NCBI RefSeq assembly: GCF_988242995.1
Contig: NZ_OZ547043.1
Direction: 5' to 3' (one strand)
Length of the DNA stretch: 64,000 bases
The notes beneath the pieces were generated by a model, which was not told the DNA's origin, did no database searches, and saw nothing but the letters and a program-made list of their open reading frames with translations. This document shows, piece after piece, positions 25,859 to 27,827 of this stretch. How positions within the stretch are numbered: position 1 is the first letter of the stretch; the number at the start of each line of letters is the position of its first letter. Both the position numbers and the translations under genes were made by a program.

Positions 25859-26181
25859 CAGCCATGCGCAACCATCAAAAGACGTTCACGATGCTGCTGG
25901 TTCTGGTGCTGATTGGTCTTAATATGCGACCACTGCTCACCTCCGTCGGGCCACTGCTACCGCAATTGCGCCAGGCAAGCGGAATGAGCTTTAGCGTGGC
26001 TGCCCTGTTGACCGCTCTGCCGGTGGTTACCATGGGCGGGCTGGCGCTGGCCGGAAGCTGGCTTCATCAGCATGTCAGCGAACGTCGCAGCGTCGCCATC
26101 AGTTTGTTACTGATTGCCGTCGGTGCATTGATGCGTGAGCTTTACCCCCAAAGTGCGCTGCTGCTTAGCAGCGCACTGCTT

Positions 26182-26893
26182 GTGCACAGAAAACCCCCAG
26201 CTAGGCTGGGGGTTCCGGAAAGCTTTCAGCTTTGAGCCAGTTATTAAAACCCCTTTTGATTTGTTAAAACACCTTGCGGTCTGGCAACTGCAAGTGTCAA
26301 ACAAGAAATCAAAAGGGGGTCCCAATGGGGAACGAAAAGAGCTTAGCGCACACCCGATGGAACTGTAAATATCACATAGTTTTTGCGCCAAAATACCGAA
26401 GACAGGTGTTCTACAGAGAGAAGCGTAGAGCAATAGGCAGTATTTTGAGAAAGCTGTGTGAGTGGAAAAGCGTACGGATTCTGGAAGCTGAATGCTGTGC
26501 AGATCATATCCATATGCTTGTGGAGATCCCGCCCAAAATGAGCGTATCCGGGTTTATGGGATATCTGAAAGGGAAAAGCAGTCTGATGCTTTACGAGCAG
26601 TTTGGTGATTTGAAATTCAAATACAGGAACAGGGAGTTCTGGTGCAGAGGGTACTACGTCGATACAGTGGGTAAGAACACGGCGAAGATACAGGATTACA
26701 TAAAGCACCAGCTTGAAGAGGATAAAATGGGAGAGCAGTTATCGATTCCCTATCCGGGCAGCCCGTTTACGGGCCGTAAGTAACGAAGTTGGATGCAAAT
26801 GTCAGATCGTGTGCGCCTGTTAGGGCGCGGCTGGTAAGAGAGCCTTATAGGCGCATTTGAAAAACCTCCGGCTATGCCGGAGGATATTTATTT
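26182..26893 (+). mobile_element. IS200 (IS200/IS605 family) insertion, about 712 bp
   Basis: Interrupts the cynX reading frame; 5' terminal hairpin CCCCCAGC-TAG-GCTGGGGG (26194..26212); Y1 transposase gene; 3' hairpin CCTCCGGC-TAT-GCCGGAGG (26865..26883) followed by a T-rich tract; boundaries accurate to a few bp. Confidence 0.85.
26325..26783 (+). CDS. tnpA: IS200 TnpA (HUH / Y1 transposase)
   Basis: 152 aa from MGNEKSLAHTRWNCKYHIVFAPKYRR...; HUH motif (DHIHMLVEI) and catalytic Tyr region (RGYYVDTVG). Confidence 0.9.
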   Translation: MGNEKSLAHTRWNCKYHIVFAPKYRRQVFYREKRRAIGSILRKLCEWKSVRILEAECCADHIHMLVEIPPKMSVSGFMGYLKGKSSLMLYEQFGDLKFKYRNREFWCRGYYVDTVGKNTAKIQDYIKHQLEEDKMGEQLSIPYPGSPFTGRK

Positions 26894-27796
26894 GGTGGAG
26901 TGGGGATCGGCATCATTCAGGCAGTGATGCCTTCGGTAATTAAGCGGCGGTTTCAGCACCGTACGCCACTGGTGATGGGGCTGTGGTCCGCGGCTCTGAT
27001 GGGCGGCGGTGGACTTGGTGCCGCCATTACGCCCTGGTTAGTTCAACATAGCGAAACCTGGTATCAAACACTCGCCTGGTGGGCGCTGCCTGCCGTTGTT
27101 GCGCTCTTTGCCTGGTGGTGGCAAAGCGCCCGCGAGGTCGCCTCTTCTCACAAGACAACAACCACTCCGGTTCGCGTGGTATTTACTCCCCGCGCGTGGA
27201 CGCTGGGTGTTTACTTCGGTCTGATTAACGGTGGTTACGCCAGCCTGATTGCCTGGTTACCCGCTTTCTATATTGAGATTGGTGCCAGCGCGCAGTACAG
27301 CGGTTCCTTGCTGGCATTGATGACGCTTGGGCAAGCAGCAGGGGCATTGCTGATGCCTGCTATGGCTCGCCATCAGGATCGGCGCAAACTTTTGATGCTG
27401 GCGCTGGCGTTACAACTGGTGGGGTTCTGCGGCTTTATCTGGCTGCCGCTGCAATTGCCGGTATTGTGGGCAATGGTGTGTGGGTTAGGTCTGGGCGGCG
27501 CATTTCCGCTCTGTTTGCTGCTGGCGCTCGATCACTCTGCGCAACCCGCTATTGCTGGCAAACTGGTGGCGTTTATGCAGGGGATCGGTTTTATCATCGC
27601 CGGGCTTGCCCCGTGGTTTTCTGGTGTGCTGCGTAGTATCAGTGGCAATTACTTGATGGACTGGGCGTTTCATGCGCTGTGCGTCGTTGGGCTGATGATC
27701 ATAACCCTGCGTTTTGCACCAGCACGTTTTCCGCAGCTGTGGGTCAAAGAGGCATGATGCGACGCTTGTTTCGCCAGATAATGGAAGAGTGAATTA

Positions 27797-27827
27797 TTGT
27801 CGGATGTGCCCAATGGCGCATCCGACA
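27797..27827. repeat. REP element
   Basis: TGTCGGATGTGCCCAATGGCGCATCCGACA palindrome between cynX and lacA. Confidence 0.6.

Follow-up and report, generated by a model that had tools for sequence, protein, structure and literature searches.

End hairpins of an IS200C element inserted in cynX, and a hairpin context at IS200-group target sites

Two short perfect stems in the DNA analysed here (a stretch of 64 kb, hereafter the window, from contig NZ_OZ547043.1 of RefSeq assembly GCF_988242995.1) are very probably the left and right subterminal hairpins of an IS200C element, each of them serving both TnpA binding and transcription termination. As a pair, these hairpins are known IS200 anatomy that has already been described; finding them here confirms a textbook arrangement and marks the cynX gene in which the element lies as a null allele. 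At the sites where IS200-group elements have inserted, we found stable hairpins followed by T-rich tails, and we lean, with some reserve, towards the view that the transposases of this group choose such places, namely a TTNTT tail on the 3' side of a stable hairpin in the lagging-strand template, which is to say intrinsic terminators. The coordinates of all features are collected in Table 1.

Table 1. Features of the cynX::IS200C locus, in window coordinates, with the evidence for each.
Feature	Coordinates	Strand	Evidence
cynX 5' fragment, codons 1-106	25864..26181	+	ORF list; weak MFS_1 match
Host hairpin in cynX, perfect 11-bp stem, GCTT loop	26152..26177	+	Inverted-repeat scan, DNA fold
IS200C, 712 bp, intact	26182..26893	+	Comparison of copies, empty sites, RefSeq annotation
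Left-end subterminal hairpin, 10 bp, loop TAG	26192..26214		Folding, Rfam alignment, covariation
Small hairpin AAAGCT-TTC-AGCTTT, second Rfam helix	26219..26233	+	Rfam structure; 71% of cells paired
Long tnpA 5'UTR stem-loop	26250..26318	+	Rfam STnc490; covariation in helices 3 and 5
tnpA, 152 aa, Y1 HUH transposase	26325..26783	+	Pfam Y1_Tnp; H61-I62-H63 and Y125
Third stem, GCCCGTTTACGGGC, in last tnpA codons	26761..26774	+	Position; conserved in relatives
Right-end interior segment complementary to 26276-26292	26794..26810		Covariation across relatives
Right-end hairpin GCGCC-TGTTAG-GGCGC	26813..26828	+	87.7% of cells paired; 5/5 pairs double-changed
Right-end hairpin GCCT-TAT-AGGC	26842..26852	+	98.2% of cells paired; 3/4 pairs double-changed
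Right-end subterminal hairpin, 8 bp, loop TAT	26865..26883		Folding, terminator scan, covariation
cynX 3' fragment, codons 107-393 plus stop	26894..27757	+	ORF list; MFS_1 match 5e-19

In the ORF list of the window, cynR (minus strand), cynT, cynS, a split cynX and lacA (minus strand) follow one another. IS200C sits between codons 106 and 107 of cynX, and the 106 and 287 codons on its two sides add up to the 393-aa CynX annotated in strain Ec-U4-19 (locus L001), whose uninterrupted gene reads ...AGCAGCGCACTGCTT up to the insertion point and GGTGGAGTGGGG after it. The cynX found here is thus a null allele made by the IS200C insertion. The preliminary description had proposed that the hairpins attenuate expression of the downstream cynX fragment, a point made moot by the destruction of the gene: with the break in cynX falling behind codon 106, no gene start of its own on the 3' fragment and a convergent next gene, lacA, any such attenuation would be functionally meaningless. 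The exact cynX::IS200C junction (26140-26225) was present in 0 of 5,426 complete RefSeq E. coli genomes; in the sole full-coverage match to the junction query, the IS lies in the cynX-lacA spacer and not within cynX. The absence of the junction from these 5,426 genomes, together with an intact transposase and two intact ends, suggests a rare and probably recent transposition event, and the copy in the window is intact and probably recently active.

Judged by its sequence, the element is IS200C, a member of the IS200 group of the IS200/IS605 family. The IS200 identity given in the preliminary description was borne out by three matches: RefSeq labels identical copies 'IS200/IS605-like element IS200C family transposase', TnpA matches Pfam Y1_Tnp (PF01797) at 3.8e-38 over profile positions 2-121 of 121, and the left end matches Rfam STnc490 with 146 bits. 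The element encodes a single small Y1 transposase and no tnpB. Read from the translation, the HUH motif (H61-I62-H63) and Y125 of this transposase are intact (Y125F is listed as catalytically dead; PMC4513863), and the protein is 100% identical to those of the copies in L001 and L002. The 64-kb window contains no further IS copy, and IS200C occupies between 1 and 36 places per genome, which amounts to roughly 15,000 places in 5,186 E. coli genomes.

We set the ends of the element by comparing three copies, those in the window, in L001 (between cynX and lacA) and in L002 (after secF), which have GTGCACAG...ATATTTATT(T) in common and share nothing further out. There are no terminal inverted repeats, the two ends (GTGCACAG... 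and ...ATATTTATTT) not being inverted copies of each other. Nor is there a target duplication, as judged from the empty cynX site in L001 and from an empty dgcN site (L086 compared with L084) that reads CATTTTT before and GGCCTG after the insertion point. The element in dgcN measures 711 bp, and the copies in the window and in L001 (712 bp) carry one T more at an end. The ends are therefore uncertain by 1 nt, and the extra T reflects a cleavage slip of 1 nt or else a variant length of the IS. As for the spacer between cynX and lacA, its 13-bp terminator hairpin (27798-27827) is empty in the window and occupied by IS200C in Ec-U4-19, where the element was inserted after GACATTTATT.

Both stems lie exactly where they were first reported, stem 1 at 26194-26212 (CCCCCAGC-TAG-GCTGGGGG) and stem 2 at 26865-26883 (CCTCCGGC-TAT-GCCGGAGG), the latter followed by the T-rich tract ATATTTATTT. 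The preliminary description called them terminal; they are indeed the end hairpins of an IS200, but their position is subterminal, 10-12 nt inside the ends. Stem 1 extends from 8 to 10 bp (AACCCCCAGC/GCTGGGGGTT, 26192-26214), and the distance from the left end of the IS is 12 nt to the 8-bp core and 10 nt to the 10-bp stem. GAAAA stands directly 5' of the left hairpin; the right hairpin has GAAAAA on its 5' side (26859-26864), and the T-rich tract on its 3' side (26884-26893) reaches the IS end. The 19-mer of stem 1 has an expected 0.00 occurrences in shuffles, and the IS end hairpins make up two of just three perfect 8-bp stems with a loop of 3 nt that the 64 kb contains. As single-stranded DNA, the ends have folding energies of -11.7 kcal/mol on the left (z -4.35) and -10.0 kcal/mol on the right (z -5.97), with 0/200 shuffles as good in either case.

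We followed the hairpins into relatives of the element by scanning one genome per species, which gave 80 loci at 66-94% amino-acid identity from Enterobacterales, Vibrio and many Clostridia. The regions compared were cut by their distance from the start or stop codon, with no search for hairpins. Across 64 relatives, 97% of the cells of the left hairpin are paired, and double-sided changes occur in 6 of its 10 pairs (one pair, for example, is GC in 21, UA in 20 and CG in 18); the observed values are equalled by 0/500 shuffles, and in slid controls 30-42% of cells are paired. The right hairpin is equally regular, with 96.2% of cells paired across 70 relatives and double-sided changes in 7 of 8 pairs. 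Shuffles, the count of stems in the window, folding, and covariation at fixed places in 64-70 relatives together rule out chance palindromes. The stems do resemble host REP elements, which are likewise small GC-rich hairpins with a 5' guide tetranucleotide and a related Y1 enzyme, the RAYT or TnpA-REP protein (PMC3333891), but REPs are host repeats in scattered positions and do not border a mobile tnpA, whereas the stems of IS200C belong to a transposing IS. We give practically no weight to an origin of the stems as chance palindromes, or as REP elements independent of the IS, a reading favored by their small size only and opposed by the statistics above, by the Rfam match and by a conserved, covarying position from Enterobacterales to Clostridia.

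The left hairpin occupies nt 11-33 of the IS and matches, within 1 nt, nt 12-34 of Salmonella IS200 (26193-26215 in window coordinates), an inverted repeat that acts as a bidirectional rho-independent terminator and stops about 85% of impinging transcripts (PMC4513863, PMC5435999). The two elements also share the long stem-loop, a 152-aa tnpA product with Y125 and a left-end layout that agrees within 1 nt; they differ in length, Salmonella IS200 measuring 707 bp and the E. coli variant IS200C, known here from its sequence, 712 bp. A consensus scan did not call the left hairpin a terminator on either strand. Its tail is TTTTC on the minus strand and only TT (TTCCGG) on the plus strand, where it is no textbook terminator. 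In a consensus scan of the right hairpin, stem and tail were terminator-like on both strands. Termination of read-through, as the preliminary description had it, stands for the left hairpin by way of its Salmonella counterpart (PMC5435999) and is a prediction for the right one. On the minus strand, the right end also gave a match to Rfam Ysr202, which we rejected: at 26.3 bits against a gathering score of 315, it reflects only a shared terminator-like hairpin.

Recognition of the hairpins by TnpA as single-stranded DNA, a further claim of that description, is established for the family through IS608 and ISDra2, and we infer it for IS200. In IS608 of Helicobacter pylori and ISDra2 of Deinococcus radiodurans, TnpA cleavage has been shown to be guided by the subterminal hairpins of the top strand (PMC3333891, PMC6006769); among the accessible literature, we found no paper showing IS200 TnpA binding or cleaving the hairpins described here. 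IS200C shares with these two elements a Y1 HUH TnpA, subterminal hairpins, the lack of terminal inverted repeats and of a target duplication, and insertion 3' of a short specific sequence. It also shares a top strand that lies on the lagging-strand template, as indicated by a GC skew that is positive on the plus strand over the window, and (as we infer here) a right cleavage 10 nt 3' of the hairpin. Unlike IS608 and ISDra2, IS200C has no tnpB; its stems are perfect where theirs are imperfect palindromes, its target is the T-rich TTNTT where theirs is TTAC or TTGAT, and the pairing between guide and cleavage site that they use is only hinted at.

A double job for each end hairpin is the most likely arrangement. 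TnpA would bind the hairpins on single-stranded top-strand DNA, as in IS608 and ISDra2, and would cut at T-rich sites, each 10 nt outward of its stem: on the 5' side of the 10-bp left stem and on the 3' side of the right hairpin. At the level of transcription, the left hairpin would shield tnpA from cyn operon transcripts, as has been shown for its Salmonella IS200 counterpart, and the right hairpin with its T-rich tail is predicted to end tnpA transcripts and to block transcripts arriving from the right. The two ends are alike in their surroundings, each hairpin being preceded by an A-rich stretch and each cleavage point being T-rich: the right-end cleavage point reads TTATT(T) in relatives, and the left flank has the logo TTNTT just before the element.

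It is very improbable that the hairpins are terminators or insulators at the RNA level only, with no part in transposition. Termination is the sole function of the left hairpin that has been shown experimentally (PMC4513863, PMC5435999), and the terminator-like look of the right hairpin on both strands points the same way, but all family members studied need subterminal hairpins for TnpA binding (PMC3333891, PMC6006769, PMC7290912). Relatives, moreover, conserve the spacing from hairpin to end, the A-rich sequence on the 5' side and T-rich sites of cleavage, and the left hairpin is the best conserved structure of all, yet most relatives have no plus-strand T run after it (GGTTCAAAA). Non-Watson-Crick cells are rare in both end hairpins (G.T in 6-7 cells, A.C in 3-4), which fits a constraint acting on both strands or on the hairpins as DNA; the 5'UTR stem-loop, by contrast, tolerates many G.U pairs, which fits a structure constrained as RNA. 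Such nearly pure Watson-Crick pairing, like the family mechanism, is consistent with hairpins that are TnpA recognition sites on DNA alone and terminate transcription incidentally. We hold this very improbable in view of the roughly 85% termination reported for the Salmonella left hairpin (PMC5435999) and of the conserved T-rich tails that follow the right hairpin on both strands. A role in DNA and a role in RNA cannot be told apart by covariation, and on the balance of this evidence we retain the double function.

The site that IS200C entered in cynX has a structure of its own. The 11-bp host hairpin folds as DNA at -14.8 kcal/mol (z -5.5) and is separated from the IS by GCTT (26178-26181), so that the insertion lies 3' of TGCTT, 4 nt past the hairpin. 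Across 61 independent left flanks of IS200-group elements, the nucleotides before the insertion point follow the logo T(55/61) T(54) N T(56) T(53), with TTNTT and then GTATA across the junction as the full form, and the IS begins 0-9 nt past the end of perfect stems. The last 45 nt of these flanks fold at a mean of -19.4 kcal/mol, compared with -7.9 kcal/mol at random positions (p = 3e-30). A fold of -14 kcal/mol or lower was reached by 87% of the 61 flanks but by only 4-6% of control TTNTT sites, among which we included a set outside long ORFs. The T tract alone is therefore not a sufficient explanation of the upstream terminators, since control TTNTT sites reach only 4-6%, and neither is intergenic neutrality, since the controls outside long ORFs also reach 4-6%.

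Of the distinct E. coli IS200C sites that we examined, all 12 had both the hairpin and the T-rich context. Eight of these sites follow terminators (in the cynX/lacA spacer and after secF, plaP, luxS, carB and three hypothetical genes), and in each of them tnpA points the same way as the gene upstream; the other four insertions disrupt genes (cynX, gtdA, dgcN and an AtuA-family gene) and also lie behind hairpins. Upstream hairpins and terminators might instead reflect purifying selection that spares insertions at harmless sites, with no choice of target by the transposase. Positions just past the terminator of a co-oriented upstream gene, as in 8 of the 12, are plausibly neutral, and a preprint (10.1101/2025.07.22.666184) takes an excess of upstream terminators as a persistence trait. 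We nevertheless think selection alone unlikely, since neutrality leaves unexplained the four gene-disrupting insertions that also lie behind hairpins, and since the insertion point falls within 0-9 nt of the hairpin foot and the 87% of real sites contrast with the 4-6% of control TTNTT sites outside long ORFs. The hairpin context at real as against control sites, taken with the gene-disrupting insertions, argues for targeting rather than mere tolerance. Under targeting, the insertion in cynX hit a sequence within a gene that resembles a terminator.

A hairpin directly 5' of the target is nearly universal in the IS200 group and, to our knowledge, is not part of the IS608 model. The same group includes IS1541 of Yersinia, an IS200 orthologue that we compared through the literature, and one IS1541 copy lies between pheL and pheA, in the attenuator region (PMC3082878), a position that fits a terminator context. 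The literature covered here, which does not extend to the older IS200 papers or the family review, contained no explicit target rule, and one preprint in it gives a statistical excess. If the targeting reading is true, it would account for IS200 lying nearly always between genes, in the same orientation as the gene upstream and without doing harm, would provide a testable rule for where IS200 elements go, and would help explain a high copy number with little damage. IS200 would then represent a second class of mobile element that homes to terminators. The first is formed by the bacterial class C (IIC) group II introns, which settle just past intrinsic terminator stem-loops. These introns (mentioned in PMC7923331) are retroelements with an entirely different chemistry, and the likeness concerns the target only.

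The best-studied structure of the left end, absent from the preliminary description, is the long tnpA 5'UTR stem-loop together with the antisense RNA art200 encoded opposite it. The stem-loop spans nt 69-137 of the IS, coincides with a 16-nt inverted repeat and takes most of the Shine-Dalgarno sequence AAGGGGGT (26313-26320) into its pairing. In Salmonella IS200, nt 69-138 (26250-26319 in window coordinates) form a stem-loop in which the Shine-Dalgarno sequence is sequestered (PMC4513863). Rfam RF01405 (STnc490) aligns to 26192-26315 on the plus strand over its full length (model positions 1-124 of 124) at 146.4 bits (gathering score 56). The left hairpin is the first helix of the model; the second, the small AAAGCT/AGCTTT hairpin, shows double-sided changes in 4 of 6 pairs and lies around the point, about nt 40, at which tnpA transcription is reported to start. 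The STnc490 model fits the sense strand of tnpA (146 bits, compared with 19 on the opposite strand) and takes in the terminator hairpin lying upstream of where tnpA starts. STnc490/art200 has been described as antisense to the 5'UTR (PMC4513863), and the Rfam model may be oriented or delimited otherwise than the RNA.

At the other end of tnpA, the GCCCG/CGGGC stem had been placed just after the stop codon; its arms are in fact at 26761-65 and 26770-74, before the TAA (26781-26783), and the stem ends 7 nt short of this stop, within the coding sequence. Taken alone it folds no better than chance (-5.4 kcal/mol, z -0.81, with 34/200 shuffles as good). At the nucleotide level, CCCGTTTACGGG followed by nnCAAGTAA is conserved in nearly all relatives, with compensatory variants of the stem (CCCAT/ATGGG, CCCTT/AAGGG and CCCGC/GCGGG), and the motif is kept also where, in one subgroup, the ORF ends immediately ahead of it and it falls in another reading frame. 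From these alignments, the third stem is probably a real element.

Two further right-end hairpins, at 26813-26828 and 26842-26852, covary across relatives (Table 1), and we found no description of them in the accessible papers. Next to the outermost hairpin, position -3 of the 5' stretch covaries with position +5 of the tail (A/T, G/C and C/G), with a mutual information of 0.49 that comes from few independent lineages and with no register that fits all cases. Among relatives, GAAAAA goes with ATATTTATT, GAAGAA with GTTNCTTTT and TGACAA with ATGTGTTCA. We rejected both a simple lengthening of the right stem by its flanks and one fixed pairing register between 5' stretch and tail, since the variants cannot all be fitted by any one register. 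A pairing of guide with cleavage site, as in IS608, is a possible source of this covariation by analogy.

The apex of the 5'UTR stem-loop (26276-26292) forms one arm of a 17-nt internal inverted repeat whose partner lies at 26794-26810, the arms being nt 95-111 counted from the left end and nt 84-100 counted from the right. Pairing between the arms is higher within a locus (82.9%) than between loci (76.7%), and 0/5,000 permutations reach the observed value. Mismatches are equally common as G.T (101 cells) and A.C (93 cells), so that the repeat appears strand-symmetric and not evidently an RNA duplex; a plus-strand RNA duplex between left and right ends was therefore set aside as unsupported. 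The covarying repeat may be a further, so far unrecognised, functional element of IS200C.
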